A stretch of 41,509 bases of DNA from a virus, in IMG/VR virus record IMGVR_UViG_3300035493_000027, one strand, 5' to 3'. Position 1 is the stretch's first letter; each line of letters opens with the position of its first letter. The notes beneath the pieces are model-generated. The model saw nothing but the letters and a program-made list of their open reading frames with translations. It was not told the origin of the DNA and searched no databases. Shown one piece after another: positions 2,973-41,509 of the stretch. The position numbers and the translations under genes are program-made.

Positions 2973-2974
2973 GC

Positions 2975-3025: not shown

Positions 3026-3038
3026 TTATGGGGGTTCC

Positions 3039-6477: not shown

Positions 6478-7061
6478 TGTGTGATCCCCTTTCCATCACG
6501 ATGGGTGTGATGAGCACGCTATCTGCCGTGGCAGGACATCAACAGCAGTCTGTGGCTGCCAAGATGCAAACCAAGCAGCACGAGCAGAATCAACGCAACG
6601 CCCATGCTGCCCTGCGGGACAGCTATATCGCTATCCAGAACCGCCAGCAGCAAGAGGCCCAAAGCGCTGCCCAGCAGATCGAGGAGCGCCGCCGCGAGTC
6701 GGTACGGCAGATGTCCTCGGCCTATGCAGCAGCCGGTGAGGCTGGAGTCTCTGGCTTCTCCGTCCAGTCAATCCTGGCTGACATCGGCGCTACTGCATCT
6801 CGTGACATCAGCAACATCGAGCAGAACCGCGACTGGACGCTCGACCAGCTCAACTCCGAGATGGCTGGTGCCCGTAACCAGGCCATGGGCCAGATGAACG
6901 CCACCGCTCCTGGCACCCGCCCGAGTGGCTGGGCAACTGCCCTGCAGATCGGTTCGAGCGCTGCCGGAGCCTACGCCAACTACACCACCCGCACCGGCAA
7001 AGACCCGGTGGGCGGCTACTTCGGCAAGAAGTCCACCACGACCACCACCAAGACGACCTAA
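6477..7061 (+). CDS. Internal virion protein B (T7 gp14-like)
   Basis: Begins with MC, Gln-rich coiled region. AAGEAGVSGFSVQSIL parallels the T7 gp14 AIGESMLEGSSMDRI block. Position after gp13-like. Confidence 0.8.
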   Translation: MCDPLSITMGVMSTLSAVAGHQQQSVAAKMQTKQHEQNQRNAHAALRDSYIAIQNRQQQEAQSAAQQIEERRRESVRQMSSAYAAAGEAGVSGFSVQSILADIGATASRDISNIEQNRDWTLDQLNSEMAGARNQAMGQMNATAPGTRPSGWATALQIGSSAAGAYANYTTRTGKDPVGGYFGKKSTTTTTKTT

Positions 7062-7071
7062 GAGGTAACCA

Positions 7072-8775: not shown

Positions 8776-8783
8776 GGAATTGA

Positions 8784-12419: not shown

Positions 12420-12445
12420 CAACCAATCGTTCCATCGCTAAGGGG
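12418..12445 (+). promoter_or_regulatory. Degenerate M2-like copy (AACAACCAATCGTTCCATCGCTAAGGGG)
   Basis: Its 3' half CCATCGCTAAGG resembles CCATCGCATAGG of the 2975 copy. Starts at the stop codon of the gp16-like gene, like other M2 copies. Confidence 0.3.
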
Positions 12446-12471
12446 CGGCCTTCGGGTCGCCCTTTTTCTTT
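12443..12471 (+). terminator. Intrinsic-type terminator (UUCG tetraloop hairpin plus T-run)
   Basis: GGGCGGCC-TTCG-GGTCGCCC (8 bp, one G-U) followed by TTTTTCTTT. Confidence 0.8.
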
Positions 12472-12486
12472 GTCTGGAGGAAAAGC

Positions 12487-14454
12487 ATGGCTCTTGCACG
12501 AGTCACTTACACACAGAGCGTCAGTGGTAACCGCAACTTCTCGGTGCCTTTCCCGTATCTGTCCAAGGATCACGTCAAGGTCACCGTTAATGGCGCAGCC
12601 GTGACGTTCTCCTGGCTGTCGGCCTCGTCCATCCAGTTGACCACGGCACCGGCCATCGGCGTCAAGGTCGAGGTTCGCCGGGTAACCGAGCGCAACTCCC
12701 TGCTGGTGGACTTTGCGGACGGCTCTACGCTCACCGAAAGCCAGCTCGATCTGGCCAGCAAGCAGAACTTCTACCTGTCCCAGGAAGCGGATGACCTGGC
12801 TGTCGAATCCAATGGCCTCGCCAAGGACGCGACCGATACCGCCAACGCCGCAACCACCACGGCCAATGAGGCGAAGACCCTCGCCAACACCGCTGTGAGT
12901 ACCGCCAACTCGGCCAGTGCTACGGCTAACGACGCGAAGTCAACAGCAGATTCCGCCGTAGTGACCGCCAACAACGCCAGCAATACTGCTTCTTCAGCGG
13001 TAGTAACAGCGAACGGTGCAGTAACCACGGCATCGGCTGCAGAGGCGAAAGCAGATTCGGCTGTTACGACCGCTTCGCAAGCGAATAACCGCGCATTCAG
13101 CGCAGAGCTGAAAGCTGATTCTGCGATCTCCACTGCCAATGGCGCGAGTGCCAAAGCGGACAGCGCAACCAGCTCTGCCAACACCGCACTCAATACGGCG
13201 AACACTGCCCTTAGTAACTCTGAGACTGCAGTTTCGCTTGCCGACGCCGCGTCGATTCGCTCTGACGCCGCCCAGGCATCTGCCAGTGCTGCTCAAGCTG
13301 CCGCTGAAGCCGCCGCTCAGGATGCCAACACAGCGGTAAACACGGCTGCTGAGTTGGAAGTGACGGTGAATCAGGTACTGGAGGGTGTTCAGGCAATCGC
13401 AGGTGGTGACCTGTCCGACTTTGCCAAGAACTCGGAAAACCTCTCGATGTTGACCGATAAGGCTGCGGCCAAGGCCAACTTGGGATTAGATCAAGTCGAT
13501 AACACCAGCGATCTGGATAAGCCGATCTCAACGGCAACTCAGAGTGCTCTTGAAGGTAAAGCAGATTCTTACCACCTGCACACTCGGGATCAAATTACAG
13601 ACTTCACTGTAAGTTGGGCCGAGGTTACAGGGAAACCGGCAAGTTACACCCCAAGCGCTCATACTCACGGGGTGAATGACTTACCGGCGTCAGTGAAGGG
13701 TCTAGTCGCTTATTACGGCAGTGGTCAAGGAGATCCGAATACAGCGGTTGACCATATCCTTCTGTCTAACCACGCAAACACACCTAACTCCGCGTTCTAC
13801 TGGCATATATACACGAGCTTCTACTCGTCGATTAGTTCGACAGCGAACCGCTCGCAACTAGCCATTCAGTACAACGGAGGAAACCAAGTCTATGCGCGTT
13901 CCTGCTATGGATCGACGTGGACTGCGTGGGTACGGCTGGATGTAGGCGACTGGGCGACGTTGTTGAACAAGCCGTCGGAGTTCCCCCCGTCAGCACACAA
14001 TCACGACTGGGCGAATATCCTCAACCCGCCGACTCAAGCGACTCGCTGGCCTACATGGAGCGAAGTAACCAGTAAGCCTACGACATTCCCGCCTAGTTCA
14101 CATACTCATGGCGCTGCTGATATAGCCGCTGCATTCAACGGGAGCGGCTTACAAAGTCTAGGACTGACTGGCTACCAGAAGCTCCCTGGAGGTCTGATCC
14201 TGCAGTGGAAGTACCATGATGTCAGCGTAAGTCTTGGTGCTCATACCATGATGGTGTCTAACTCGTCGTTCCCTATCGCATTCCCCAATGAGGTGTTTGC
14301 TGTTTATACGGCATGGATGAACGGTAACACCTCGAAGATCTCTTTGATGGCCACCGACGTGAGCACAACCCAGGTCGGCGCGATTTACGGTTCTGACAAC
14401 ACTAACGGTGGAACAAGAACAGGTCGAATTGTGTATTTAGCTACAGGGCGTTAA
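12487..14454 (+). CDS. Tail fibre protein (T7 gp17-type N-terminal adaptor, Ala/Thr/Asn-rich stalk, HxH-repeat distal part)
   Basis: The N-terminal ~100 aa fit the T7 tail-fibre N-terminal domain pattern (FSVPFPYLSKDHVKV..V..R.T, LVDFADGSTLTESQLD). Nt ~12830-13340 encode low-complexity TAN/SA repeats. Three P-S-(A/S)-H-(T/N)-H-(G/D) repeats occur (SAHTHG, SAHNHD, SSHTHG), as in the phage tail fibre repeat family. Confidence 0.9.
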   Translation: MALARVTYTQSVSGNRNFSVPFPYLSKDHVKVTVNGAAVTFSWLSASSIQLTTAPAIGVKVEVRRVTERNSLLVDFADGSTLTESQLDLASKQNFYLSQEADDLAVESNGLAKDATDTANAATTTANEAKTLANTAVSTANSASATANDAKSTADSAVVTANNASNTASSAVVTANGAVTTASAAEAKADSAVTTASQANNRAFSAELKADSAISTANGASAKADSATSSANTALNTANTALSNSETAVSLADAASIRSDAAQASASAAQAAAEAAAQDANTAVNTAAELEVTVNQVLEGVQAIAGGDLSDFAKNSENLSMLTDKAAAKANLGLDQVDNTSDLDKPISTATQSALEGKADSYHLHTRDQITDFTVSWAEVTGKPASYTPSAHTHGVNDLPASVKGLVAYYGSGQGDPNTAVDHILLSNHANTPNSAFYWHIYTSFYSSISSTANRSQLAIQYNGGNQVYARSCYGSTWTAWVRLDVGDWATLLNKPSEFPPSAHNHDWANILNPPTQATRWPTWSEVTSKPTTFPPSSHTHGAADIAAAFNGSGLQSLGLTGYQKLPGGLILQWKYHDVSVSLGAHTMMVSNSSFPIAFPNEVFAVYTAWMNGNTSKISLMATDVSTTQVGAIYGSDNTNGGTRTGRIVYLATGR

Positions 14455-14459
14455 CGGCA

Positions 14460-14831
14460 ATGAAGTATTCAGTAGAGACAAACGGCTTTTATGCCGACGA
14501 TGTCCAATATGCCTATGTCCCTTCGGACGTTGTCCAGATTACGGATGAGGAGTATTGGACACTACTCAAAGGGCAATCCGAAGGGAAGCGGATTGTCCTG
14601 GGAAACAATGGGCGACCAGTGTTAGGTGAGCCTCTGCCTCCAAGTTACGAAGATGTCGCCGAGCAGGTCCGGTCTCAACGTAATCGGCTACTTGCGGAAT
14701 CTGACTGGACGCAAATGCCGGATGCTCCGGTTGATCGTTCAGCCTGGGCGGTGTATCGCCAAGCGCTGCGTGAAGTGCCGCAACAGCCCGGCTTCCCCTT
14801 CGACGTGGTATGGCCGGAGGCTCCTGCATGA
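14460..14831 (+). CDS. Tail fibre assembly chaperone (Tfa-like)
   Basis: C-terminal R..LLAESDWTQMPDAP......W..YRQALREVPQQPGFPFDVVWPEAP fits the Caudovirales tail fibre assembly protein motif as recalled. Immediately downstream of the fibre gene. Confidence 0.65.
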   Translation: MKYSVETNGFYADDVQYAYVPSDVVQITDEEYWTLLKGQSEGKRIVLGNNGRPVLGEPLPPSYEDVAEQVRSQRNRLLAESDWTQMPDAPVDRSAWAVYRQALREVPQQPGFPFDVVWPEAPA

Positions 14832-15055
14832 CCGTCCGCCACGCTGCTGAGCAAGCAGCCATCGTCACCACTCCCGTGCCGGTTGGTGTCTCGGGCATGA
14901 CCATGTTCGGGATCACCCTTCAGGATTGGGTGTTCATCGGCACCGCGATGCTTCTGGTGTTCCAGATCATCGTCTTCCTGCCCAAGGTACGGGACGCAAT
15001 CAAGTCCCTGTTCGGAAAGGAGAAAACCTGTGACCGCACCGAAAGAGCTTCTTGA
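14828..15055 (+). CDS. Holin candidate (position of T7 gp17.5)
   Basis: ATGA overlap with the preceding stop. 75 aa with a strong TM segment (WVFIGTAMLLVFQIIVFL) and a charged C-terminus. Lies between the fibre module and small terminase as in T7. Confidence 0.55.
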   Translation: MTVRHAAEQAAIVTTPVPVGVSGMTMFGITLQDWVFIGTAMLLVFQIIVFLPKVRDAIKSLFGKEKTCDRTERAS

Positions 15056-15263
15056 GGCTCTCCACGCGGCGGTCGGTGAGCAACTGCTGGAGCGAATCCA
15101 GTCTGGCCAAGCCACTGCCTCGGATTTCGCCCAGGCCATCAAGTTCTTGAAGGACAACGGCATCGAGGCAATCCCGACTGCCGGTAACTCCCTGGAGCGC
15201 CTGACCAATTCGTTGACCAGCCAGCTCCCGTTCACCGATCCCAACGATCCCGCATACCACTAA
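15030..15263 (+). CDS. Terminase small subunit (T7 gp18-like); GTG start
   Basis: 77 aa helical protein directly upstream of the large terminase. AAGGAG lies 6 nt upstream of the GTG. The AIKFLKDNGIE block is typical of this family as recalled. Confidence 0.75.
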   Translation: MTAPKELLEALHAAVGEQLLERIQSGQATASDFAQAIKFLKDNGIEAIPTAGNSLERLTNSLTSQLPFTDPNDPAYH

Positions 15264-15284
15264 CCAAACCGCCTAGAAGGCCCG

Positions 15285-15346
15285 TAGAGCGCCTCCAGCA
15301 ATCCACCAGTGCATAGGTACAGGGTGGGTTCGCTGGCGGCGCTCTA
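15285..15346 (+). other. Long imperfect hairpin (about 22 bp in three helical segments) carrying an M2 copy
   Basis: TAGAGCGCC/GGCGCTCTA, CCAGC/GCTGG and AATCCACC/GGTGGGTT pair around the apical loop AGTGCATAGGTACAG. The ATG at 15346 lies in the 3' arm. Confidence 0.6.
15298..15317 (+). promoter_or_regulatory. M2 motif copy (GCAATCCACCAGTGCATAGG), function unknown
   Basis: Intergenic, between small and large terminase genes. Confidence 0.6.
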
Positions 15347-15372
15347 TGCGTTTCTGTGGAGCTTACAGCCCT

Positions 15373-17049
15373 ATGTCTTTGCCTGAGTCTCACCCCTTGA
15401 GGGACTTCAGGAACTTCCTCTTTGTCGTGTGGGAGTTCCTGTGGAATGCCGGGGCCATTACGGCAGCAAAGCCAGACCCCACGCCCATCCAATACGACAT
15501 CGCTCACTTCCTCCAGCACGGCCCTCGACGCAAGGTCATCGAGGCGTTCCGGGGAGTGGGCAAGAGCTGGATCACCTCGGCCTACGTCTGCTGGCGACTC
15601 CTGCTCGATCCCAACCTCAACTTCCTCGTGGTCTCGGCCTCGAAGGATCGCGCTGACCAGTTCTCGACGTTCACCAAGCGGTTGATCTTCGAGCTGCCCA
15701 TCCTGGCCCACCTGCGGCCCAGGGACGGTCAACGCAACTCCAACATCATGTTCGACGTTGGCCCGGCTGGTATCAGCCATTCGCCCTCGGTGAAGTCCGT
15801 GGGTATCACCGGCCAGCTCACTGGTAGCCGTGCCGACGAGATCATCGCGGACGACGTGGAGTCGCTGAACAACTCGCTCACCCAGGTGATGCGCGACCAG
15901 CTCTCCGAGCGGATCAAGGAGTTCGACGCGATCATCAAGCCCGGTGGCCGCATCACGTTCCTGGGCACGCCTCAGACCGAGATGTCGATCTACAACCAGC
16001 TCACCGAGCGTGGCTACCAGATCCGCGTCTGGCCAGCTCGCATCCCAGAAGACCCCGACAAGTACCAGGGCCGTCTGGCTCCCTACATCATGGACATGAT
16101 CGCCCGTGGTGCTAAGACCAGGGAGACCACCGATCCCAAGCGGTTCAGCTCGGAGGACTTGCTGGAGCGTGAGGCTTCCTACGGTCGATCCGGCTTCGCC
16201 CTGCAGTTCATGCTGGACACCAGCCTGAGCGACCAAGAGAAGTACCCGCTGCGGCTGCAAGACCTGATCGTCATGCCCCTGGATACCCGCATGGCCCCCG
16301 TGAAGGTGGTCTGGTCGTCTGGCCCGGAGTACACCCTCAACGATGTCCCCTGTGTGGGCATGGGTGGTGATCGGTTCTACCGGCCCATGTGGACTGCCCA
16401 GGACATGGCCGAGTACACCGGCTCGGTGATGTTCATCGACCCGTCCGGTCGCGGTAAGGACGAGACCTCCTACGCGGTCGTGAAGATGCTCCACGGGTGG
16501 CTCTACTTGGTCGACTGCGGGGGCTTCACCGGGGGTTACAACGACGAGACCCTCAAGAGCCTGTGCCTCGTGGCAGCCAAGCATTCGGTCAATCTAGTGC
16601 TGATCGAACCCAACTTCGGTGACGGTATGTTCCTCGAACTCCTCAAGCCCTGGATGACTCGGTTCCACCCGGTCACCCTGGAGGAAGCCCCGAGGGCATC
16701 CATGCAGAAGGAGAAGCGGATCATCGACGTACTGGAGCCGGTGATGAACCAGCACCGTCTGGTGATCGACAAGGCGCTCGTGAAGAAGGACTACGACTCA
16801 GCTCCTGATCCCAAGTACAGCCTGTTCTACCAGCTCACCCGGATCACCAAGGATAAGGGGGCATTGATCCACGATGACCGCCTGGATGCGCTTGCAGGAG
16901 CCGTTGCGTACTGGGTAGAGCAGATGGGTAGGGATACCGAGAAAGCCGCTCAGAGCCACCGGGAGAGGCTCCTAGACGCTGAACTGCAGAAGTTCGCACG
17001 CAGCGTCCTGGGCTATTCGCCCCAGGCTGATACATGGATGGGCTTCTGA
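15373..17049 (+). CDS. Terminase large subunit (T7 gp19-like)
   Basis: AFRGVGKSWITS (Walker A), LVVSASKDRADQFS, HSPSVKSVGITGQLTGSRADEIIADDVE, FLGTPQTEMS and ALIHDDRLDAL closely match T7 gp19 as recalled. The start could instead be 15346, which is embedded in the upstream hairpin. Confidence 0.93.
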   Translation: MSLPESHPLRDFRNFLFVVWEFLWNAGAITAAKPDPTPIQYDIAHFLQHGPRRKVIEAFRGVGKSWITSAYVCWRLLLDPNLNFLVVSASKDRADQFSTFTKRLIFELPILAHLRPRDGQRNSNIMFDVGPAGISHSPSVKSVGITGQLTGSRADEIIADDVESLNNSLTQVMRDQLSERIKEFDAIIKPGGRITFLGTPQTEMSIYNQLTERGYQIRVWPARIPEDPDKYQGRLAPYIMDMIARGAKTRETTDPKRFSSEDLLEREASYGRSGFALQFMLDTSLSDQEKYPLRLQDLIVMPLDTRMAPVKVVWSSGPEYTLNDVPCVGMGGDRFYRPMWTAQDMAEYTGSVMFIDPSGRGKDETSYAVVKMLHGWLYLVDCGGFTGGYNDETLKSLCLVAAKHSVNLVLIEPNFGDGMFLELLKPWMTRFHPVTLEEAPRASMQKEKRIIDVLEPVMNQHRLVIDKALVKKDYDSAPDPKYSLFYQLTRITKDKGALIHDDRLDALAGAVAYWVEQMGRDTEKAAQSHRERLLDAELQKFARSVLGYSPQADTWMGF

Positions 17050-17070
17050 TTACCACACAGTTTTGGAGAA
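17048..17070 (+). promoter_or_regulatory. Phage RNAP promoter, M1 family (GATTACCACACAGTTTTGGAGAA)
   Basis: Overlaps the terminase stop. Followed by the stem-loop GAAGGGGG-gagta-CCCCCTTC at the predicted transcript 5' end. Confidence 0.8.
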
Positions 17071-17107
17071 GGGGGGAGTACCCCCTTCCTCAGAACTGAG
17101 GTGAGTA

Positions 17108-17596
17108 ATGAGGATAGAAACACTAAGCGAACTTCTTGAGTACCGTGAAGGTAACCTCTACTGGCGAAAAACCCGGAGAGGTAAGGCCCGTAAAGGCTCG
17201 GTAGCGGGGAGTAAACGCCAGGACGGTTATGTCATGGTAGAAGTTGGGGGAAACCGCTTCTTCGCCCATAGACTGATATGGATGTTGTTCAACGGTTCTA
17301 TTCCAGCCGGAATGCAGGTGGATCACATCAATGGAATCAGGGACGACAACCGTATCGAGAACCTCCGGCTGTTGTCCCAAACAGACAACATACGGGCTGC
17401 TTCCAGAAGGCCGAGGAAGAACAACACATCTGGCGTTCCTGGCGTCTACTACAACATCAGCCCTAAGGCGAGAGGGTATGTGGCTAGAATCAGCGTGAAT
17501 GGAAAACGCATAGAGCTGGGCTTCCGCACCGACTTCTTCGAGGCTGTCTGCTTGAGAAAGTCGGCAGAAGTACGCTACGGCTACGCAAAGTTGTGA
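17108..17596 (+). CDS. HNH homing endonuclease with AP2-type DNA-binding domain
   Basis: HRLIWMLFNG..VDHINGIRDDNRIENLRLLSQTDN (HNH_3-type) plus GVPGVYY....GYVARISVNGKRIELGF (AP2-type). Clearly lower GC than its neighbours. Confidence 0.9.
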   Translation: MRIETLSELLEYREGNLYWRKTRRGKARKGSVAGSKRQDGYVMVEVGGNRFFAHRLIWMLFNGSIPAGMQVDHINGIRDDNRIENLRLLSQTDNIRAASRRPRKNNTSGVPGVYYNISPKARGYVARISVNGKRIELGFRTDFFEAVCLRKSAEVRYGYAKL

Positions 17597-17645
17597 TTGA
17601 GATAGAGGGGGCGGCCTCTCCATCGCTGGAGTACTCCCCCCTTTC

Positions 17646-17668
17646 AATTACCCCACAGTTCTGGAGGA
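17646..17668 (+). promoter_or_regulatory. Phage RNAP promoter variant, M1 family (AATTACCCCACAGTTCTGGAGGA)
   Basis: One substitution in the conserved core (A to C). Promoter plus about 40 nt of leader is a diverged copy of the 38417 promoter-leader. Confidence 0.65.
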
Positions 17669-17711
17669 TAGGGGAAAACACATAGATTACTTATAGATAC
17701 AGACACTAGAT

Positions 17712-17811
17712 CCTCTGTCAGTCGTCTGCTGCTTTCCCTCTCCTGACCACCATCATCATCCATCCTTCCTTCACTGACACCAGGGCTTCACCCTCTGTCA
17801 GTTGTCTGCTG
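17712..17811 (+). repeat. Two 20-bp direct repeats (CCTCTGTCAGTYGTCTGCTG) 80 bp apart flanking a pyrimidine-rich tract
   Basis: Copies at 17712-17731 and 17792-17811 differ at one position. The intervening sequence on the + strand is almost all C/T. Confidence 0.7.
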
Positions 17812-17825
17812 TGACCGTACCAACC

Positions 17826-18113
17826 ATGACCATCAATGACCATGACATCCAGGGGATGCCCATAAGGCTCCTCTTTGTGCGCTACCTCATGGCCTCCTTC
17901 CTGTACTACCAGCTCGATGAAGCCAGTCCCTGGAGTGACCATGAGTACGACGCTGCCTGTAAGCGCCTGTACGACGAATGGGACACCTTCGAGCATCCCC
18001 ACAAGGTCTTCGCTGATCGTGACTGCTTGACTGCTGGGTCGGGTTACCAGATCCGGTACTACCCCAAGATCACCCAAAGTGCGGCGTTGAGATGGGCGAG
18101 AGGGGAGACCTGA
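17826..18113 (+). CDS. Hypothetical protein resembling domain Ia of NAD-dependent DNA ligase
   Basis: FLYYQLDEASPWSDHEYDAACKRLYDEWDTFEHP parallels E. coli LigA [31 protein letters not shown] as recalled. Start uncertain (TTG 17802, ATG 17826 or ATG 17856); no clear RBS. Confidence 0.6.
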   Translation: MTINDHDIQGMPIRLLFVRYLMASFLYYQLDEASPWSDHEYDAACKRLYDEWDTFEHPHKVFADRDCLTAGSGYQIRYYPKITQSAALRWARGET

Positions 18114-18511
18114 CCCGTTGAATCGACGGGTGAGCTTCAGGGGAACCCCTTGGTTTTTGGCAAAAATCCGAGACGGTATAACGCCGGAGCTGCACCCTCA
18201 GTTCCCCCCGTGGGGGTGGGCACCTGGGGCTGGCGACACATGCCACGACACAAACGCCCCGCAAAGCCGCGCCGTTGCTGGCCTCGCAAAGGATTAGGAA
18301 TCCATCGGCCTATCTAGTGGGCGCGCTGCCTGGGCAATCCTGGGGCTTTCCTGGGCGTTCTAGTGGGCTGGCCTGGTGCTTGGCCTTGCGCTTTTTCTTG
18401 TGTGGGCTTGTTGTGTCGTGTCTTATTTTTTTCCTTCGACCACAATATCTAGTGGTTCCCCTGCAGTCACACCACAAGCCATAGCGTTATGCCGCACTCC
18501 ACGCAAAAGAC

Positions 18512-18540
18512 TTGACGAACTATCCACCGTCGCATAAGAT
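18512..18540 (+). promoter_or_regulatory. Sigma70-type early promoter candidate (TTGACG-17 nt-TAAGAT)
   Basis: Best -35/-10 pair with correct spacing in the 664-bp non-coding region upstream of the first large early gene. The 17-nt spacer is an M2 copy. Confidence 0.55.
18518..18538 (+). promoter_or_regulatory. M2 motif copy (AACTATCCACCGTCGCATAAG), function unknown
   Basis: Fills the spacer of the sigma70-like promoter. Confidence 0.6.
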
Positions 18541-18720
18541 GCGCAGCCAAGAGGGAAGCGAAAGCCAACCTCACCGGCCACTAGGCCAACCGCTCTTTAA
18601 CAATCTGGATGGTGGTGCCCGTAGGTAACACCAACGGCAAGGATTGCCGGTAATCCCCAAGGATGGTGGATGCCTCAAGGCCCATTGACTGGGATCTTTC
18701 CCAGTATCAGTGCGCCTTGA

Positions 18721-18740
18721 AGTATCCACCCGCGAGATGG
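18721..18740 (+). promoter_or_regulatory. Degenerate M2-like copy (AGTATCCACCCGCGAGATGG)
   Basis: Shares TATCCACC-NN-CG with M2. Lies about 40 nt upstream of the ATG at 18778. Confidence 0.3.
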
Positions 18741-18777
18741 ATGCGACAGTGAAAAGCCCAACAAAGGAGAACTACAG

Positions 18778-19437
18778 ATGGCTATTCGCATCAGTGTTAC
18801 TTCAAAACTGGATGGCATCCGCTCTTGGTCACTGGAGGCCATCGCTACCTGCCCCGGCTCTGTTGGGGCAGACGGTGAACTGGTTCCCGCTTGCCAAGGC
18901 TGCTATGCCACCACTGGCAACTATCGCTTCCCCAACGTCAAAGCGCCTCGTCAAGAGAACCGCCAAGACTGGAAGCGCGCCGAGTGGGTAGACGATATGG
19001 TCAAGGAACTGGACAGCGACCGCTATTTCCGGTGGTTCGACTCCGGTGACCTGTACGACCTGCGCCTCGCCCACAAGGTGTATCAGGTAATGGCTCGCAC
19101 TCCATGGTGCAAGCACTGGCTGCCGACCCGGATGCACAAGTTCGAGAAGTTCGCCCAGGTGCTGCGCATGATGGAGCAACTGCCGAATGTGGTAGTTCGC
19201 CGCTCAAGCGACAACGTCGACGGAACCTTCACCGATGGCGTTCATGGCTCGACCATTGTGCCCACTGCTTCCCAGGTTCCGGCTGGCGTCAAGATCTGCC
19301 AAGCCTACGAGAACGGCGGCAAGTGCTCCGGTTGCCGGGCTTGCTGGGATAAGTCGGTCTCGGTTGTCGGCTACGTCGCCCACGGCAAGAAGATGGCCTC
19401 AGTCCTCAAACGCGAAGGGCTGATTGCTGTCGGCTGA
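18778..19437 (+). CDS. Cys-rich early protein of unknown function (possibly GP88-like)
   Basis: 219 aa, RBS AAGGAG. Cys clusters C-x13-C-x2-C near the N-terminus and C-x8-C-x2-C-x2-C near the C-terminus suggest metal or Fe-S binding. The family assignment is from memory only. Confidence 0.85.
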   Translation: MAIRISVTSKLDGIRSWSLEAIATCPGSVGADGELVPACQGCYATTGNYRFPNVKAPRQENRQDWKRAEWVDDMVKELDSDRYFRWFDSGDLYDLRLAHKVYQVMARTPWCKHWLPTRMHKFEKFAQVLRMMEQLPNVVVRRSSDNVDGTFTDGVHGSTIVPTASQVPAGVKICQAYENGGKCSGCRACWDKSVSVVGYVAHGKKMASVLKREGLIAVG

Positions 19438-19459
19438 AACAATCCACCAACGCAACATT
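19438..19459 (+). promoter_or_regulatory. M2 motif copy (AACAATCCACCAACGCAACATT), weaker 3' half
   Basis: Begins immediately after the TGA of the preceding gene. Confidence 0.5.
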
Positions 19460-19536
19460 CGCGCTAGTGGCTTCATCCAAGGCCATCCACTGGGTGGCCT
19501 TCAGTGAACCCACTGAACCCCATGAGGGCAACAACC

Positions 19537-19704
19537 ATGAAAGCGTTCAAGCACTGGGGCCGCGAACTGGCCCGCGACCATCGCTACCGCAAAACCATGC
19601 GCCGCTCTAAGGAGTGGGGCGACTTCGACGACATGGGCAACGAGCGCATCGAGCGCGCCTACCACGCCCAGCGGCTGGCCAAGCGCGGCCTGTTGTTCTG
19701 CTGA
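19537..19704 (+). CDS. Hypothetical small basic protein
   Basis: ORF 19504..19704. ATG 19537 has GAGGG 8 nt upstream; the upstream candidate starts lack an RBS. Confidence 0.55.
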   Translation: MKAFKHWGRELARDHRYRKTMRRSKEWGDFDDMGNERIERAYHAQRLAKRGLLFC

Positions 19705-19712
19705 GGTGGCCC

Positions 19713-19895
19713 ATGGACGTATTCAATCACGTCGAGCGTGAGGTCGACCGCATCCTGGCGCCTCAAGCCGACTTCTACCCACTGCAGCCCGACTACCTGC
19801 AACGCCTTACCGAGGAAGCCTACAACCTGGGGGCGCTCTCCCAGGACGAGTACCGCTACCTCTGTCGGCGCATCGAGAAGGCGAGGACTCACTGA
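19713..19895 (+). CDS. Hypothetical small protein
   Basis: Internal ATG of ORF 19614..19895 preceded by GAGGTGG. 60 aa. Confidence 0.6.
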   Translation: MDVFNHVEREVDRILAPQADFYPLQPDYLQRLTEEAYNLGALSQDEYRYLCRRIEKARTH

Positions 19896-20047
19896 TGTCT
19901 GCCGCTCTCCAGCTCGACCAGCAGATGCCCCTTGAAGGCTGCTTGCTGACTGTTCTCGTGACTGCCCGGTGGTTCCACCGCCAGGGCATTCGCACTGGAC
20001 TCACCCGAGTTCGCAAAGGCCACTGGACGCTGACGCCCAGGGCTTGA
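19895..20047 (+). CDS. Hypothetical 50-aa protein (below the ORF-track cut-off)
   Basis: The ATG overlaps the preceding stop (TGATG), GAGGA 6 nt upstream. Translated manually: MSAALQLDQQMPLEGCLLTVLVTARWFHRQGIRTGLTRVRKGHWTLTPRA. Confidence 0.4.
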   Translation: MSAALQLDQQMPLEGCLLTVLVTARWFHRQGIRTGLTRVRKGHWTLTPRA

Positions 20048-20074
20048 ATTACCACCACTACTGAGGAGACACCT

Positions 20075-20476
20075 ATGAACGACGCACTCAAGAAACAGGC
20101 CGCTACTGCTTTCACCGCCATGATCGCCAAGACCATCGAGAAAGTCGTGACGGCTGATGCCCTGGACGACGTGGTCGTCGGTCGCACCTTCGACTTCAAC
20201 GTCCTGAACCGCACCAAGACTGGCCGCATGATCGTGGAAGGCATCGTCGGTGCCGTCTGCCACATGGACCTCGCCAATCTCATGCAGCACGGCCCGTTCA
20301 CCATCGTAGCCACCTATCAGGGAGCGCTGACCGACGTGGTTTGCCAGGACGTGAGAGGCGAGCACTTCATGCTGCCGAGCGGTGTGTTTACGCTGCTGAA
20401 CCGCTTCGAGACTGGCGACATGCCGCCCGAGCTGCCCTTCGAGATCGACGCGGAGGAGCTGGCATCGGCTGCGTGA
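20075..20476 (+). CDS. Hypothetical protein
   Basis: 133 aa, RBS GAGGAG, codon usage like the rest of the genome. Confidence 0.8.
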   Translation: MNDALKKQAATAFTAMIAKTIEKVVTADALDDVVVGRTFDFNVLNRTKTGRMIVEGIVGAVCHMDLANLMQHGPFTIVATYQGALTDVVCQDVRGEHFMLPSGVFTLLNRFETGDMPPELPFEIDAEELASAA

Positions 20477-20590
20477 TTCTTCACCAGGGAAGAACAGTGG
20501 CATTTTGTTATCAAAGTGCCACTTGAAAAAAGACTTTCAGTCCCCATCATTTTGTACGCTCTTTTGTTCAAGGAGAGGTGACCGTACAAG

Positions 20591-20803
20591 ATGCTGAAGC
20601 ATGAACTTAGACGCATGTTGGCGCAAAAAACTGACGATTTCGTGGCGAACGGTCACGAAATCATCAGGTATGCCTCACCGAGTAACCCCTCGAAGATCAA
20701 GCTCGGGGGTCACCGGAAGGTGTACAACCTCAAAGAGCTGGCATGGCGTGACGAGCTACAACGGATGCAGAAGGAGGCCGCACAGAATGACTGCAGCCAT
20801 TGA
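20591..20803 (+). CDS. Hypothetical protein (lower-GC island)
   Basis: 70 aa ORF. AAGGAGAGG upstream, though with long spacing. Confidence 0.55.
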   Translation: MLKHELRRMLAQKTDDFVANGHEIIRYASPSNPSKIKLGGHRKVYNLKELAWRDELQRMQKEAAQNDCSH

Positions 20804-21071
20804 CAAGCTAATCGAGTCGTCCAACGGACGCCCAGTTTCCATCAGGTTCCTCAAGGAGACCGGGGAAGAAGCCACCTTGAGTGGCCGCACGACGATTCGC
20901 TGGGGCAACGTCCCTAGCAAGTACAGCAAGGGGCCAAACCGCCGCAAGTACTACCTGATCTACGTCCCACACAAGGGCTACCGCCGAGTCAACGCTGACG
21001 CTGTACTGGAAGGTGCTCTGGGTGGGGTCACGGTGAAGAACGACGCGGTTCCCCCCGAGATAGCAGCGTGA
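20787..21071 (+). CDS. Hypothetical protein (lower-GC island)
   Basis: Internal ATG of ORF 20601..21071 with AAGGAGG 9 nt upstream. 94 aa. Confidence 0.6.
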   Translation: MTAAIDKLIESSNGRPVSIRFLKETGEEATLSGRTTIRWGNVPSKYSKGPNRRKYYLIYVPHKGYRRVNADAVLEGALGGVTVKNDAVPPEIAA

Positions 21072-21454
21072 TCCCCTTTGAAGACGCCCTGGATCTGGGG
21101 GTTATAACGATCCTGATCGGCGTCGCTGTGTTTTTCATGAGCATCACTTAGGAGTTCGACTGGTCTGGTCTCGTAGTCGTCGAGCGGGGCCAGGGCAAAC
21201 GGATATTGCAGGGCAAGACGTACTAGACAGGCAGACGCTCGAAGTCTGCTGCGCGCAGAAGCAAGAAGGACTACCAGAGAATGTACATCAGTTTTTGCTC
21301 TCCCAAGGTTTTCGGAAAGCGGTGCTTTTTTGAGTTCGATAGCAATTCACGTCCGCATCAGATGCTAGACTGGCTCGTCGAACCGAATGATGTTTTACTG
21401 TGGGTGTGGCGGTTCCACATCGTCATATCCAAAGAAACTAGGAGGTAACAAACC

Positions 21455-21790
21455 ATGGCTCTGACAGCTCTCGCAGTGATCGAGGAAGTAATCAAGCGTT
21501 TCCGCGACTTCGATCAGGAGATGCAGATGCAGACTGCCCAGACATTCATCGCGGTCGCTATGCAGCCCGGCATCACCATGAAGGAGCTATCGGAGAAGGT
21601 TGGCATTTCTCAAGCGTCCTGCAGCCGCAACGTCTCGGCCCTGTCCCGAGTCCACCGGCTGAACAAGCCAGGAATGGATCTGGTTGTGGCTGCAGAAGAT
21701 CCGATGGAACGCCGCCGCAAGGTAGTCAAGCTGACCCCGAAAGGACAGCGCCTTGCCGAGTCACTGACCCAACTTATCGAGGAGAAGTAA
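21455..21790 (+). CDS. Winged-helix (MarR-like) transcriptional regulator; candidate lysogeny regulator
   Basis: HTH ITMKELSEKVGISQASCSRNVSAL followed by the wing DPMERRRKVVKLTPKGQRL. Strong RBS TAGGAGGT. Adjacent to the tRNA-Leu/integrase module. Confidence 0.8.
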   Translation: MALTALAVIEEVIKRFRDFDQEMQMQTAQTFIAVAMQPGITMKELSEKVGISQASCSRNVSALSRVHRLNKPGMDLVVAAEDPMERRRKVVKLTPKGQRLAESLTQLIEEK

Positions 21791-21797
21791 CAGAGGT

Positions 21798-21883
21798 TGG
21801 TGCTCGGAGCGGGACTCGAACCCGCAAGACCGTAGGTCGGGGCATTTTAAGTGCCCTGTGTCTACCAATTTCACCACCCGAGC
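21798..21883 (-). tRNA. tRNA-Leu (anticodon TAA), complete, antisense to all protein genes
   Basis: The reverse complement folds as a type II tRNA. Acceptor GCTCGGG/TCCGAGC, 3-bp D stem GTG/CAC, anticodon arm GGGCA-CTTAAAA-TGCCC, variable arm GACC-tac-GGTC, T arm GCGGG-TTCGAGT-CCCGC, ACCA end. Confidence 0.9.
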
Positions 21884-21895
21884 GAGGAGAGAACC

Positions 21896-22969
21896 ATGCC
21901 GGTAAAGCCAAGAGGTCGTGGCTTTGAGGCCACAGTCAACCACCAAGGAGGAAAGTACCGGAGGCAATTCGCAACCCAGGTCGAAGCCGAAGCCTGGGAG
22001 AAGGCAACCAAAGCCGCCCTCATGAGGGGCGAGATGGTAGCAGAAAGCAGCGGCTCAGCCAATGGAAACCCGAGCAGTCTCAAGGAGTTGGCCGAGCTGA
22101 CCTACAAACGATTCTGGCAGGGTCGCCCTGGAGGAGAGACCGCCCTGCGCAACGCCAAGCAATGCCTCGCCATCCTCGGTGAGGGCATGACCCCAGGCTC
22201 AGTTACGGAGCAGCGCATCGACGACATGGTGTTCGCATTCGAGCAGCAGGGTCTGTTCGACAGCACCATCAACCGGAAGCTCTCCGCTCTGTCCAAGATG
22301 CTGACCTTCGCCTATGAGCGAGGCTACATCCCACGCAAACCCAAGATCGAACGCAAGAAAGAACCCCAGAACCGCATCAGGTACTTCGACGAGGTCGAGG
22401 AGCAGATGCTGCTGGACACCTTCAACCACTTCGGGCTTCACGACATGGCCGACTTCTGCATCGTGGCCATCGACACCGGGATGCGGGTTGGTGAGATCAT
22501 GCGGATCGAGGATCGTGACGTAGCCAATGGGCTGGTCTCCGTGTGGCGCACGAAGAACGGCAAGGCCCGATCCATCCCGATGACCAAGCGCGTGGCTGAG
22601 GTACTGGAGCGCCGCTTTAAGGAGGAGCGTCGTCGGCTCAACACCATCGGCAACGTGAAGGCGTTCGACGGCTGGAACCACAGCAAGATCAGAACGCTGT
22701 GGGAGAAAGCCCGCCGCCACATGAAGATGATGGGCGACCCTCAGTTCGTCCCGCACGTCATGCGGCACACCTTCTGCTCCCGGCTGGTTCAGCGTGGAGT
22801 GGACATCGTGACGGTCTCGAAGCTGGCCGGTCACAGCTCCATCGTAGTCACCATGCGGTACGCTCACCTCGCTCCCGATAGTCTGGCCCATGCCATTCGG
22901 AAGCTGGAAGAACCCGCAAAAGATGTAAATCCCCAAGCTCGACACACGACACAAGTTGTGTCGCGGTAG
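21896..22969 (+). CDS. int: Tyrosine integrase (site-specific recombinase)
   Basis: TGMRVGEIMRI, HVMRHTFCSRLVQRGVDI, LAGHSSIVVTMRYAHL (R..HxxR..H..Y catalytic pattern). ATG 21896 with GAGGAG upstream is preferred because the longer ORF start at 21851 lies inside the tRNA. Confidence 0.93.
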   Translation: MPVKPRGRGFEATVNHQGGKYRRQFATQVEAEAWEKATKAALMRGEMVAESSGSANGNPSSLKELAELTYKRFWQGRPGGETALRNAKQCLAILGEGMTPGSVTEQRIDDMVFAFEQQGLFDSTINRKLSALSKMLTFAYERGYIPRKPKIERKKEPQNRIRYFDEVEEQMLLDTFNHFGLHDMADFCIVAIDTGMRVGEIMRIEDRDVANGLVSVWRTKNGKARSIPMTKRVAEVLERRFKEERRRLNTIGNVKAFDGWNHSKIRTLWEKARRHMKMMGDPQFVPHVMRHTFCSRLVQRGVDIVTVSKLAGHSSIVVTMRYAHLAPDSLAHAIRKLEEPAKDVNPQARHTTQVVSR

Positions 22970-22985
22970 TGTCGAGAGCCGCGAC

Positions 22986-23006
22986 CATTGCGATAGTGGA
23001 TTGATT
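22986..23006 (-). promoter_or_regulatory. M2 motif copy on the minus strand (CAATCCACTATCGCAATG core)
   Basis: The only inverted copy. Lies in the left arm of a bulged hairpin GTGGaTTGATT...AATCAACCAC. Confidence 0.45.
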
Positions 23007-23099
23007 GAACCCCAATAAAATCAACCACTTACGCCAGCAGTAGTCCTCCGCAACAGACTTAAAAGGTCTTGCATCCGACTACCCACTGGCACATTGAAT

Positions 23100-23126
23100 A
23101 ACCCGGCATCGTCCGGGTTTTCTTTT
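23100..23126 (+). terminator. Intrinsic terminator between integrase and RNAP gene
   Basis: AACCCGG-catcgt-CCGGGTT followed by TTCTTTT. Confidence 0.75.
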
Positions 23127-23132
23127 CCCATC

Positions 23133-23152
23133 AACTATCCACTGTCGCAACC
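23133..23152 (+). promoter_or_regulatory. M2 motif copy (AACTATCCACTGTCGCAACC), function unknown
   Basis: Between the terminator and the M1 promoter of the RNAP gene. Confidence 0.55.
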
Positions 23153-23220
23153 TTTGCAGACCGCTCGACACAAGACACGGGCGGTTTGTGTCGTCACGGC
23201 TCTCTGACGCCCTGCTTGGC

Positions 23221-23243
23221 AATTACCACACAGTCTTGGAGCA
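23221..23243 (+). promoter_or_regulatory. Phage RNAP promoter, M1 family (AATTACCACACAGTCTTGGAGCA), directly upstream of the RNAP gene
   Basis: Full M1 core. 58 nt upstream of the RNAP ATG. Confidence 0.85.
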
Positions 23244-23300
23244 CCGAGAGGTGACCTCCGAGGCCGGTTCCTTAAAGCCAAACTCAGAGAGATCCAATAG

Positions 23301-25826
23301 ATGACTTCAATCATCACCAACCAACTGATTCAGGAAATTGAGAACAACCAAGAGTGGCAAGAGAAGTTCGACCGTCAGGTGGAACTTGAGGAGAAGATGA
23401 GAGGCATGGGCGTCGACCGTCACTGGTCGGAGGTAGCCAAGGCCAGGGAGCGTGGTCAGGAAACCAGCGTCCGCTCCGTCCGCCGACTGATGAACTCGTC
23501 AGTCGCCAAGATCGCAGAAGGCATCCGCCAGTTCATCGAGAGCTGCGAGGCTGGCAAGGCTGGCCGCAAGTACAGCGCATACCCACTGCTCAAGCAGATC
23601 GAACCCGAGGCCGCAGCCCTGATCACCGCACGGGTGGTACTGGATGGCGTGGCCAAGGGTGACCTGCTGGTCCCCCTGGCTCGCCGAGTTGCGTCCCTGA
23701 TCGAGGACGAGCTGGCCTTCCGCGAGTTCGCCAAGGCTGACCGCAAGACCTACGACTGGTTGGTCAAGCGCGAGAAGCGAGTCAACGGCAGCAGCTACCG
23801 CCGCCAGCGGCTGACCATGCTGCACAACATGGAGGCCCGCAACATCGCATGGCAGGAGTGGACTGCCCGCGAGTCCCTGCTGGTCGGCTCCAAGCTGATC
23901 GAGATCATGACCGAGACCACCGGCCTGATTCAGAAAGTCACCCGCACCGTGGACGTGAAGCGCCAGGAGGTGGCAATCGAGGCCACCCCTGAGACCATCG
24001 CCTGGATCAACGAGGAGAACAACCGCTGCGAAGCTCTCTCCCCGGTGTACCTGCCCACCATCATCCCGCCTCGCCCCTGGACTTCACCGTTCGAGGGCGG
24101 CTACTGGACTCCGCGTGTCCGCCGACTGGCCCTGGTCAAGACCCACTCGAAGGGGTACTTGGAGGAGCTGGCCGAGCACGACATGCCGGAAGTCTACGAT
24201 GCGATCAACGCCATGCAGCACACCGCCTGGGCCATCAATGGCCGGGTGCTGGAGGTGGTTCGCAACCTGTGGAACAACGGTGCCACCCTGGGTGGTATCC
24301 CTGCGGCTGACGATCAGCCGATCCCGCCGAAGCCCCTGTTCCTTGAGCAGGAGCTGCCCCGCGAGGAGTGGTCGGAGGATCAGGTGCGTCAGTTCAAGGA
24401 GTGGAAGCGCGAGGCAACCGACACCTATGCGTCCAACGCGAAGCTGAAGTCCCTGCGTCTGCAGTTCGCCAAGGTATTGATGATTGCCGAGATGTTCGAG
24501 CACGAGGAGGAAATCTACTTCCCGCACCAGTTCGACTTCCGTGGCCGGGCCTACGCTGTGCCGATGTTCCTGAATCCCCAGGGCAGCGACATCGCCAAGG
24601 GTCTGCTGGAGTTCGCCAATGCGGTAGCGATCAACGACGAGGAAGGTGCCAACTGGCTGGCCATTCACGGTGCCAACAGCTACGGCTACGACAAGGTCTC
24701 CCTGGCTGAGCGTGTGCGCTGGGTGCAGGAGAACGAGGCCGAGATCCTGGCCTGTGCTGCTGACCCGTACAGCCACAGCATGTGGGCCAAGGCCGACAAG
24801 CCCTTCCAGTTCCTGGCGTTCTGCATCGAGTGGGCTGAGTTCAAACGCGAAGGCTACGGCTACCTGTCGACCTTGCCCATCGCAATGGACGGTAGCTGCA
24901 ACGGGCTGCAGAACTTCTCGGCGATGCTGCGTGATGCCATCGGCGGCGAGGCCGTGAACCTCGTGCCCCAGGAGAAACCTGCGGACATCTACCAGAAGGT
25001 GGCCGACCGCGTGGTGCTGCGTGTCGAGGCTGACGCTGTTGGCCAGGACGAGGTGTTGGCGAAGCTGGCCCAGGGCTGGCTCAAGCACGGCATCAACCGC
25101 AAGGTGTGCAAGCGCCCGGTGATGACCCTGGCCTATGGTGCCAAGGAGTTCGGCTTCAAGACCCAGGTGTTCGAGGACACCGTCATGCCGTACAAGCTGA
25201 AGGCTGGCAAGGAGTTCCCCTGGGAAGGCTCCGGCTGGGCTGCCGCTGAGTACATGGGCAAGCTGATCTGGGAGTGCGTCGGTGAGGTGGTGGTCGCTGC
25301 TCGTCAGGCTATGGACTGGCTGCAGAAGGCTGCGCGTCTGGCCGCGAAGGAAGGACTGCCGGTACGTTGGAACACCCCGGACAATCTGGTCGTGCTCCAG
25401 GCGTACCCGAAGATGCTGACCGAGCGCATCGACCTGACCTTCGGGGGCAGCCGTCACCTGCTCACCGTGGCAGTCAGCCCGACCACCGAGCTGGATCGCA
25501 ACAAGCAAGCCAACGGGATCAGCCCGAACTGGGTTCACTCGATGGACGCCAGCCACATGCGGGCCACTGTCCGCCGCTGCTGGAACGAGGGGATGCGCAG
25601 CTTCTCCCTGATCCACGACAGCTACGGCACCCACGCCGGGAACGCCTGGGCACTCGCCAAGTTCCTGCGTGAGGAGTTCGTCACCATGTACGAGGAGGAT
25701 GTGCTGGAAGACTTCAAGCGAGAACTGGAGCGGCAGCTCCCCGAAGGATCAGAGCTTGATCCTCTACCCCCGAAAGGCAACTTGGACTTGGCTTTGGTGC
25801 TGGAGTCCGCGTTTTTCTTTGCCTGA
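23301..25826 (+). CDS. T7-like single-subunit DNA-directed RNA polymerase
   Basis: FDFRGRAYAVPMFLNPQGSDIAKGLL, DGSCNGLQNFSAMLRD, LIHDSYGTH and a C-terminal FFFA match T7 gene 1 protein motifs. Confidence 0.98.
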   Translation: MTSIITNQLIQEIENNQEWQEKFDRQVELEEKMRGMGVDRHWSEVAKARERGQETSVRSVRRLMNSSVAKIAEGIRQFIESCEAGKAGRKYSAYPLLKQIEPEAAALITARVVLDGVAKGDLLVPLARRVASLIEDELAFREFAKADRKTYDWLVKREKRVNGSSYRRQRLTMLHNMEARNIAWQEWTARESLLVGSKLIEIMTETTGLIQKVTRTVDVKRQEVAIEATPETIAWINEENNRCEALSPVYLPTIIPPRPWTSPFEGGYWTPRVRRLALVKTHSKGYLEELAEHDMPEVYDAINAMQHTAWAINGRVLEVVRNLWNNGATLGGIPAADDQPIPPKPLFLEQELPREEWSEDQVRQFKEWKREATDTYASNAKLKSLRLQFAKVLMIAEMFEHEEEIYFPHQFDFRGRAYAVPMFLNPQGSDIAKGLLEFANAVAINDEEGANWLAIHGANSYGYDKVSLAERVRWVQENEAEILACAADPYSHSMWAKADKPFQFLAFCIEWAEFKREGYGYLSTLPIAMDGSCNGLQNFSAMLRDAIGGEAVNLVPQEKPADIYQKVADRVVLRVEADAVGQDEVLAKLAQGWLKHGINRKVCKRPVMTLAYGAKEFGFKTQVFEDTVMPYKLKAGKEFPWEGSGWAAAEYMGKLIWECVGEVVVAARQAMDWLQKAARLAAKEGLPVRWNTPDNLVVLQAYPKMLTERIDLTFGGSRHLLTVAVSPTTELDRNKQANGISPNWVHSMDASHMRATVRRCWNEGMRSFSLIHDSYGTHAGNAWALAKFLREEFVTMYEEDVLEDFKRELERQLPEGSELDPLPPKGNLDLALVLESAFFFA

Positions 25827-25847
25827 CGCTATCCACTAGTGCATAGA
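25827..25847 (+). promoter_or_regulatory. M2 motif copy (CGCTATCCACTAGTGCATAGA), most palindromic copy
   Basis: Begins 1 nt after the RNAP stop. CTATCCACTAGTGCATAG is a palindrome except for two positions. Confidence 0.6.
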
Positions 25848-25861
25848 TGTGGGCCAGCCGG

Positions 25862-25884
25862 AATTACCACACAGGTATGGAAGA
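25862..25884 (+). promoter_or_regulatory. Phage RNAP promoter, M1 family, copy 1 of tandem triplet
   Basis: AATTACCACACAGGTATGGAAGA. Confidence 0.85.
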
Positions 25885-25907
25885 CCGCGCTGGCTCTACC
25901 TCCAGGC

Positions 25908-25930
25908 GATTACCACACAGGTATGGAAGA
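25908..25930 (+). promoter_or_regulatory. Phage RNAP promoter, M1 family, copy 2 of tandem triplet
   Basis: GATTACCACACAGGTATGGAAGA, 46 nt after copy 1. Confidence 0.85.
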
Positions 25931-25954
25931 CCGCACTGGCTCCACCCCCGAGGC

Positions 25955-41161: not shown

Positions 41162-41315
41162 CGAAGCTCAACCGAAAGTCACCAGCCAGGAAACCAAAGG
41201 GGGTCGCCGCAAGGCGGCCCCTTCTGTTTCTGCGGCTGAAACCAACAAGCAACCCCAAGAGGCCAGCAAGCGCGTGGAGAAGACCGGCAGCGGCCTCGTG
41301 ATCGTTTACCACTAA
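41154..41315 (+). CDS. 53-aa basic protein, tandem copy 1
   Basis: The ATG overlaps the portal stop (ATGGCTGA). Translation: MADEAQPKVTSQETKGGRRKAAPSVSAAETNKQPQEASKRVEKTGSGLVIVYH. Confidence 0.55.
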   Translation: MADEAQPKVTSQETKGGRRKAAPSVSAAETNKQPQEASKRVEKTGSGLVIVYH

Positions 41316-41327
41316 GAGGAGAACCAA

Positions 41328-41489: not shown

Positions 41490-41509
41490 GAGGAGAACCA
41501 AATGGCTGA

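Follow-up and report, generated by a model that had tools for sequence, protein, structure and literature searches.

The DNA analysed here, 41,509 nucleotides of viral sequence recorded in IMG/VR as IMGVR_UViG_3300035493_000027 and hereafter called the window, is a circularly permuted assembly of the free, unintegrated genome of a T7-like Pseudomonas/Stutzerimonas phage. Between positions 21455 and 22969 it carries a regulator gene, a complete tRNA-Leu(UAA) on the opposite strand and a tyrosine integrase gene. We consider it highly probable that these three form a tRNA-dependent lysogeny module, in which integration through a short core splits the tRNA-Leu(UAA) gene of the host, and the tRNA brought by the phage (the cargo tRNA) replaces it.

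ARAGORN, Rfam, Pfam and PHROG recover the three genes where a preliminary description of the sequence had placed them, down to the 12 nt between the tRNA 5' end (21883) and the integrase ATG (21896). The integrase (21896-22969, plus strand, 357 amino acids) matches Pfam Phage_integrase PF00589 at 1.8e-25, and its residues R197, K220, H287, R290, H313 and Y322 occupy invariant columns in an alignment of 35 sequences. The regulator (21455-21790, plus strand, 111 amino acids) had been called MarR-like. Its winged helix stands, with a match to Pfam HTH_24 above the cut-off (28.4 bits, cut-off 21.9) and to PHROG 9665, 'transcriptional regulator' (5e-33), whereas the score for MarR_2 falls just short (24.2 bits, cut-off 27). 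With 111 residues the protein is short for a MarR, and 'MarR-like winged helix' is the safe name; a homologue is found by tblastn upstream of the integrase in about 35 related loci. The cargo tRNA (21798-21883, minus strand, 86 nt, A73 and an encoded CCA) scores 53.1 bits in Rfam against a threshold of 29. That it is the only minus-strand gene of the genome is plausible: the one long minus-strand open reading frame (ORF) examined, at 17123-17647, has no family match and overlaps a strong plus-strand HNH endonuclease ORF.

The arrangement had been regarded as unusual. The same order of regulator, antisense tRNA-Leu and integrase recurs, however, in phage LUZ100, in pelagiphage HTVC200P and in several uncultured T7-like contigs, with integrase identities down to 30%. 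The longer order regulator(+), tRNA-Leu(-), integrase(+), short core and RNA polymerase (RNAP) gene(+), together with integrase homology, is shared with LUZ100, HTVC200P and four related loci (L038, L070, L077, L018). LUZ100 (OP329100.1; PMC10134795) is 91% identical to the window in nucleotide sequence over the module (tRNA 96.5%, regulator 95.5%, integrase 88.9%, RNAP 97.3%) and about 93% over the structural half. Its record annotates the same features: a MarR-family gp10, the antisense tRNA-Leu, the integrase gp11, P3, phi1 and T4. The LUZ100 study left the att site unmapped and interpreted the tRNA as left over from an imprecise excision (Putzeys et al., mSystems 2023, PMC10134795).

Where does a phage of this type enter the chromosome? 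An integrase-only scan of genome contigs returned a single distant Xanthobacter locus (L002); lysogens were found through a homologous-protein search, through the contigs encoding those proteins, and through IMG/VR, from which a survey set of 80 related loci was used. Stutzerimonas stutzeri records include a protein 100% identical to the integrase, which in bacterial and metagenomic contigs forms the right end of integrated prophages, and homologues with 89-100% identity sit in bacterial chromosomes. The preliminary description was thus right to call this a lysogeny module. About ten integrated prophages were identified in Pseudomonas and Stutzerimonas chromosomes, and in all of them regulator, tRNA and integrase are uninterrupted. 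The gene order in L008 (P. qingdaonensis), L009 (P. kilonensis), L238, L239 and L246 (a P. aeruginosa assembly) is tail, terminase, early genes, regulator, tRNA-Leu(-), integrase, and then directly host genes; the integrases of L238 and L239 are 100% identical to that of the window. Since the module is contiguous and host genes lie directly past the integrase, the cargo tRNA is not the crossover point.

The junctions themselves are sharply defined. On the right side, homology between free phage and prophage runs 95 nt past the integrase stop and ends in the alignment at 23064, after ...CAACAGACTTAAAA. This attR break falls exactly at 23064 in L006, L008, L009, L238, L239, L240 and L245-L247; beyond it come a class II tRNA gene's 3' half, with CACCA at its end, and then a host terminator. 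On the left side, about 240 nt upstream of the RNAP gene, the 5' half of a host tRNA-Leu up to GACTTAAAA is fused to the window from 23065 on. This host half consists of the acceptor stem, the D arm, the anticodon stem and the loop CTTAAAA, and the attL junction is present in L016, L013, L010, L011, L035, L036 and L240, covering at least three host backgrounds. Both junctions occur together on one contig, L240. Phage and host share only GACTTAAAA or AGACTTAAAA, a block of 9-10 bp. The attP common core, AGACTTAAAA at 23055-23064 (plus strand), corresponds to the anticodon loop CTTAAAA and 2-3 nt of the stem of the host tRNA-Leu(UAA), and the 10-mer occurs once in the window. The crossover site thus lies between the integrase and RNAP genes, 1.17 kb from the cargo tRNA. 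Prophages within tRNA-Leu, which the preliminary description had proposed to look for in bacterial genomes, do exist: the target, a tRNA-Leu(UAA) gene, is common to at least five host backgrounds, including the P. aeruginosa assembly, in which the natural lysogen is integrated beside lecA. The position of attP, the identity of attB and the 9-10 bp core are established here.

The right flanks of L245 and L247 looked like alternative junctions, yet their attR sequence is the standard one. In L245 a second, unrelated prophage integrase (7292-8323, minus strand) is found some 190 nt past the 3' half of tRNA-Leu and suggests tandem occupancy of the tRNA-Leu locus. In L247 a HemN/VRR_NUC/helicase block (7350-12758, minus strand), which forms the attL flank in L240, is inverted beyond attR, indicating a rearranged host locus.

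What becomes of the host gene? When the host halves of the L016 attL and the L006 attR, which derive from the same isolate genome, are joined, ARAGORN recognises the rebuilt attB as an 87-nt tRNA-Leu(taa). No tRNA is called by ARAGORN in attL, attR or attP, the relaxed threshold included, and Rfam at E<=10 detects across L240, both junctions included, none but the cargo tRNA. In a metagenome contig (L190) the site is unoccupied: positions 3818-3904 hold an intact tRNA-Leu(taa) that agrees at 100% identity with the two host halves as joined at the inferred crossover. The related contigs L150 and L146 show tRNA-Cys or tRNA-Gly neighbours, likewise seen beside attL. Integration therefore disrupts the host tRNA-Leu(UAA) gene without rebuilding it, since the 9-10 bp core is all that phage and host have in common. 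The preliminary description had expected the tRNA to be restored after insertion; the host gene is instead left split, and neither junction is a tRNA.

Is the cargo tRNA itself fit to function? Eleven copies of the cargo, taken from lineages whose integrase identity goes down to 30%, share a single cloverleaf fold with A73 and CCA conserved. Double compensatory changes are found in 19 of the 23 stem pairs, and not a single pair is broken. The cargo tRNA is under structural selection. It also follows the attachment site. The spacer between integrase and RNAP genes contains AGACTTAAAA in all five lineages that combine a UAA cargo with a contiguous spacer; in L018, which carries a cargo tRNA-Leu(CAA), the core at the same spacer position is AGATTCAAAA, so that the anticodon tracks the core. 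In L018 a 256-aa ORF (2300-3070, plus strand) lies directly upstream of the tRNA-Leu(CAA), and the MarR-like gene lies further upstream (2008-2337). Cargos of the Pseudomonas lineage read CA-CTTAAAA-TG, compared with GA-CTTAAAA-TC in the host targets. The idea that cargos avoid the full core to escape self-recombination was dropped as a general rule, as the cargos of L070, L077, L044 and HTVC200P carry GACTTAAAATC. By the general rules of wobble decoding, tRNA-Leu(UAA) is the sole reader of the codon UUA. The cargo tRNA is most likely a functional replacement for the destroyed host gene; in the lysogen it would be expressed and presumably needed for survival. Where the preliminary description had favoured an attP-embedded copy over an expressed phage tRNA, the evidence now favours the latter.

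Could the tRNA serve mainly lytic growth, by codon supplementation or as a decoy or replacement against host anticodon nucleases, with its link to integration incidental? Phage tRNAs are often explained in this manner, the second tRNA of the window, a tRNA-Asn(GTT) at 1655-1730, has no link to integration, and an anti-defence role has been raised as a possible added benefit (PMC10865867). The codon counts speak against it. Only 4 of 10,235 phage codons are TTA (0.39 per 1000), all four in one tail-fibre gene, and TTG is used at 5.0 per 1000 in the phage versus 9.6-24.9 per 1000 in genes flanking the prophage in the host, which makes codon supplementation unlikely. Moreover, the cargo isotype always matches the att target, the CAA variant included. 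To our knowledge, no nuclease specific for tRNA-Leu(UAA) has been described. We regard this explanation as improbable.

Still less probable is the proposal of the LUZ100 paper (PMC10134795) that the tRNA-Leu is a passive remnant of imprecise excision after an earlier integration and has no present function. The tRNA shares its isotype with the integration target, as this proposal would have it. Its geometry, however, does not fit: the cargo sits upstream of the integrase and in the orientation opposite to the host tRNA halves, so that simple capture by imprecise excision from attR would not yield it. Nor does the sequence: the cargo, about 65% identical by an estimate made by eye, is substantially different from the host tRNA-Leu(UAA) genes that it replaces. 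The strong covariation without decay down to 30% integrase identity, and the change of anticodon together with the core, are equally at odds with a functionless relic. So is a prophage remnant of 2.4 kb that lies between intact attL and attR in L240 (6252-8694; Logan SRR27421625_32). More than 90% of the prophage is gone, the deletion running from inside the RNAP gene on through the early region. Left are the right arm of attP, ~227 nt from the start of the RNAP gene, a 55-aa ORF, the regulator, the integrase and, between these two, an intact cargo tRNA.

Least credible of all is that the complete antisense tRNA-Leu is itself attP, with the crossover inside it and the host tRNA rebuilt from phage sequence: tRNA genes are common att sites, this one adjoins the integrase, and a canonical rebuilding attP is plausible in distant relatives with a complete plus-strand tRNA-Leu right after the integrase (L022, L045-L049, L052-L054, L057, L065; Xanthobacter L002), yet in all integrated copies of the present phage type the module is uninterrupted, the junctions lie at 23055-23064 and a tRNA is recognised at neither, so that for the natural lysogens examined the idea is refuted. 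The 80 IMG/VR loci thus contain two designs within one integrase family, a short core with a separate cargo tRNA, and a complete plus-strand tRNA-Leu directly after the integrase.

Replacement of one tRNA-Leu by another is seen a second time in contig c8 (L012 and L003, IMGVR_UViG_3300014012_000008; also L242). Here a 12.5-kb element (contig 4568-17058) sits in the anticodon loop of a cargo tRNA-Leu, flanked by a 9-bp duplication (window 21844-21852). It codes for an unrelated P4-type integrase (Arm-DNA-bind_3 and Phage_integrase; 25% identity to that of the phage), for a VapE-like primase and for one NYN-domain and one HTH_17 protein, and it brings its own different, intact tRNA-Leu(TAA). The T7-like prophage around it is heavily deleted. 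As the element supplies a new intact tRNA-Leu(UAA), one functional copy is always preserved. Taken together, covariation, the joint change of core and anticodon, retention in the remnant and nested replacement form comparative evidence that would tie the function of the cargo tRNA to integration. More tentatively, the cargo tRNA might make part of the prophage undeletable, so that stubs such as that in L240 persist and the cargo becomes a landing site for further disrupt-and-replace elements, giving nested chains such as c8. Precise excision may then restore the host gene, and any other deletion may have to keep the tRNA. We hold this extension to be possible rather than probable; if true, it would amount to an addiction-like stabilisation, with mobile elements competing for one essential tRNA gene.

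How might tRNA-dependent lysogeny proceed in this phage? After infection the genome would circularise via its terminal repeats, and the host RNA polymerase would transcribe the regulator-integrase operon. In LUZ100 the MarR-like gene and the integrase gene are co-transcribed from P3 (PMC10134795); P3 (record 2224-2273) aligns at 96% to 21359-21407 of the window (plus strand), where homology places the corresponding host-type promoter, and the equivalents of P1/P2 align at about 18500-18549. The integrase would join AGACTTAAAA to the tRNA-Leu(UAA) gene of the chromosome by recombination in the anticodon loop. At attL the host 5' half then precedes the phage terminator and RNAP gene, and at attR the 3' half follows the integrase, so that the integrase gene is the last and the RNAP gene (23301-25826, plus strand, 841 amino acids, T7-type) the first gene of the integrated prophage. 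From then on the cargo tRNA-Leu(UAA) would supply UUA/UUG decoding. The RNAP gene would be cut off from the early host-type promoters (P1/P2, P3), now at the opposite end of the prophage, and would lie behind a terminator. This separation and the MarR-like protein, a putative prophage repressor, may help to keep the prophage silent. A read-through route to RNAP expression was proposed by the LUZ100 authors (PMC10134795); integration would probably sever it.

The terminator in question was found by a terminator scan at 23100-23129 (plus strand) and is the equivalent of LUZ100 T4, which aligns at 99% to 23066-23165. Its hairpin (23100-23119) begins 36 nt right of the core, and hairpin and T-tract are unchanged in all attL junctions. 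In the free phage it closes the integrase operon; in the prophage it stands between the host tRNA promoter with the 5' half-tRNA and the RNAP gene, which it probably insulates. Directly before the RNAP gene lies a phage-RNAP promoter (23191-23249, plus strand), the equivalent of LUZ100 phi1, which aligns at 100% to 23191-23240; it belongs to a motif family ATTACCACACAG..TGGAG with nine copies in the window. In one prophage, L035 (10001-12527; JGI 3300011457, a 378-kb contig), the RNAP gene is split by an apparent frameshift into ORFs of 531 and 313 amino acids, the prophage being otherwise 98% identical, which suggests an inactivated lytic programme in a resident prophage.

Several points weigh against tRNA-dependent lysogeny. 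Expression of the cargo tRNA is presumed, as is a single copy of tRNA-Leu(UAA) in these hosts. A consensus scan of both strands found no sigma-70 promoter between 21200 and 23320, a scan that also missed the mapped P3. The LUZ100 supplementary tables on terminators, annotation, RNAP loops and SNPs place all terminators on the plus strand and give no minus-strand start site (PMC10134795). The long-read method of that study would, however, capture tRNAs poorly. Stable lysogens were not obtained by the LUZ100 authors (PMC10134795), and the prophages examined here may include defective ones, such as L035 with its split RNAP gene.

Two families of repeats surround the attachment site. Palindromes of CGACACAA and TTGTGTCG are found at 22940-22963 (CGACACAA-n-TTGTGTCG), overlapping the integrase 3' end, where they make a candidate operator or arm-type site, and at 23166-23193 (CGACACAA-n12-TTGTGTCG), directly ahead of the phage promoter that serves the RNAP gene and conserved in attL junctions, a candidate repressor operator. 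Further CGACACAA/TTGTGTCG sites, at 18234-18252 and 18412-18418, precede the early promoters and fall within or close to the terminal-repeat region. Of the nine CGACACA copies, eight fall into three clusters (18234-18418, 22940-22963 and 23166-23193); genome-wide, nine copies against 7.6 expected is no enrichment, and the clustering alone is worth noting. The palindromes are candidate operators for the MarR-like protein. MarR sites flanking the RNAP promoter were proposed in the LUZ100 paper on the basis of earlier work (PMC10134795).

The second motif, CTATCCACNNTCGCA, occurs nine times in the window against 0.85 expected, and none of 100 shuffles reached nine. A motif scan places the copies at 2977, 18520, 18742(-), 19440, 22989(-), 23135, 25829, 26136 and 30846. 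An inverted pair of them, I1, brackets the attP core, with one copy to its left (22989-23003, minus strand) and one to its right (23135-23149, plus strand, without good -35/-10 hexamers). CTATCCACNNTCGCA is the 17-nt spacer of the mapped sigma-70 promoters P1/P2 of LUZ100 (TTGACA-..CTATCCACCAGCGCA-TAAGAT), and the motif may be an operator. Most other copies stand directly past stop codons and lack good hexamers. The notion that CTATCCACNNTCGCA marks host-type promoters, including one on the minus strand at 22989 firing towards the tRNA, is unsupported, as good -35/-10 hexamers exist only at 18520.

The remainder of the window is briefly described. Its two ends repeat each other (1-127 = 41209-41335 = 41383-41509), and at the 3' end (41153-41509) a 174-nt unit stands twice in tandem; the duplicated ends are most likely an artefact of assembling a genome with circular permutation or terminal redundancy. 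Window 11896-25933 is matched at 100% identity by the Logan contig L241/L243. ARAGORN calls two tRNAs, the cargo tRNA-Leu(TAA) and the tRNA-Asn(GTT), which lies on the plus strand in the structural region and is annotated in LUZ100 too; among the Asn codons of the phage AAC already dominates (366 versus 43 AAT). The window is about 4 kb longer than LUZ100. Part of the extra length is the HNH endonuclease gene (17108-17596, plus strand; PHROG 99, 8e-57) just past the terminase gene, which is present in L241/L243 and missing from several prophage relatives.

How does this system relate to those already known? For LUZ100 the module is on record as an annotation, and for pelagiphages and mycobacteriophages its logic has been described. 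Like the window, pelagiphage HTVC200P carries a MarR-family regulator (+), a tRNA-Leu(TAA) (-) and an integrase (+), with attP in the spacer before the RNAP gene. Its tRNA-Leu ends 19 nt before the integrase ATG, its spacer holds the same 14-mer CAACAGACTTAAAA, and its integrase is 32% identical to that of the window. Unlike the window, HTVC200P and HTVC119P are low-GC marine phages of SAR11. Their junctions were mapped experimentally, with attP between integrase and RNAP, and the upstream tRNA-Leu was said to be 'likely used instead' (Zhao et al., bioRxiv 10.1101/410191); stable lysogeny and a need for the tRNA were not demonstrated in that study.

The term 'tRNA-dependent lysogeny' was coined for actinobacteriophages, and for mycobacteriophages the tRNA was shown to be required for lysogen survival, its deletion giving clear plaques (Guerrero-Bustamante & Hatfull, mBio 2024, PMC10865867). 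These authors state that the prevalence outside actinobacteriophages needs study, and their Discussion names no pelagiphage or Pseudomonas cases. Four of the defining features are found here: a tyrosine integrase, an attB inside a host tRNA gene, a short core that does not rebuild it, and a matching cargo tRNA. A fifth, the lysogen's need for the cargo tRNA in place of an essential host tRNA, is supported indirectly by covariation without decay, by the 2.4-kb remnant and by the nested replacement in c8. Actinobacteriophages likewise combine a tyrosine integrase, an attB inside a host tRNA gene, a core of only 8-17 bp, too short to rebuild that tRNA, and a phage tRNA of matching isotype; Gaia targets tRNA-Leu (CAA) with an 8-bp core. 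Unlike the present phage, they are siphoviruses of Mycobacterium and Gordonia with unrelated integrases, and the tRNA requirement is experimental there and inferred here. Canonical tRNA-targeting phages, for example cyanophage P-SSP7 or the type B relatives L022 and L045-L049, share the integrase family, the int-attP-RNAP position and the tRNA-Leu target. Their attP, in contrast, includes a long part of the tRNA or all of it (a 42-bp match to the host tRNA-Leu in P-SSP7), and the gene is regenerated; the window has 9-10 bp, and the gene is not regenerated.

New are the att sites of LUZ100-type phages, including natural P. aeruginosa lysogens beside lecA, and the comparative evidence linking cargo tRNA function to integration, by which the published reading of the tRNA as an excision relic is corrected to a functional one. 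The natural lysogens of P. aeruginosa make this phage type unsuitable for therapy in its unengineered form; deletion of the cargo tRNA should cleanly make such a phage obligately lytic. The integrase and its tRNA offer a possible integration vector for Pseudomonas. tRNA-dependent lysogeny would then not be confined to actinobacteriophages, and very probably is also an old, conserved trait of temperate T7-like phages of Proteobacteria.

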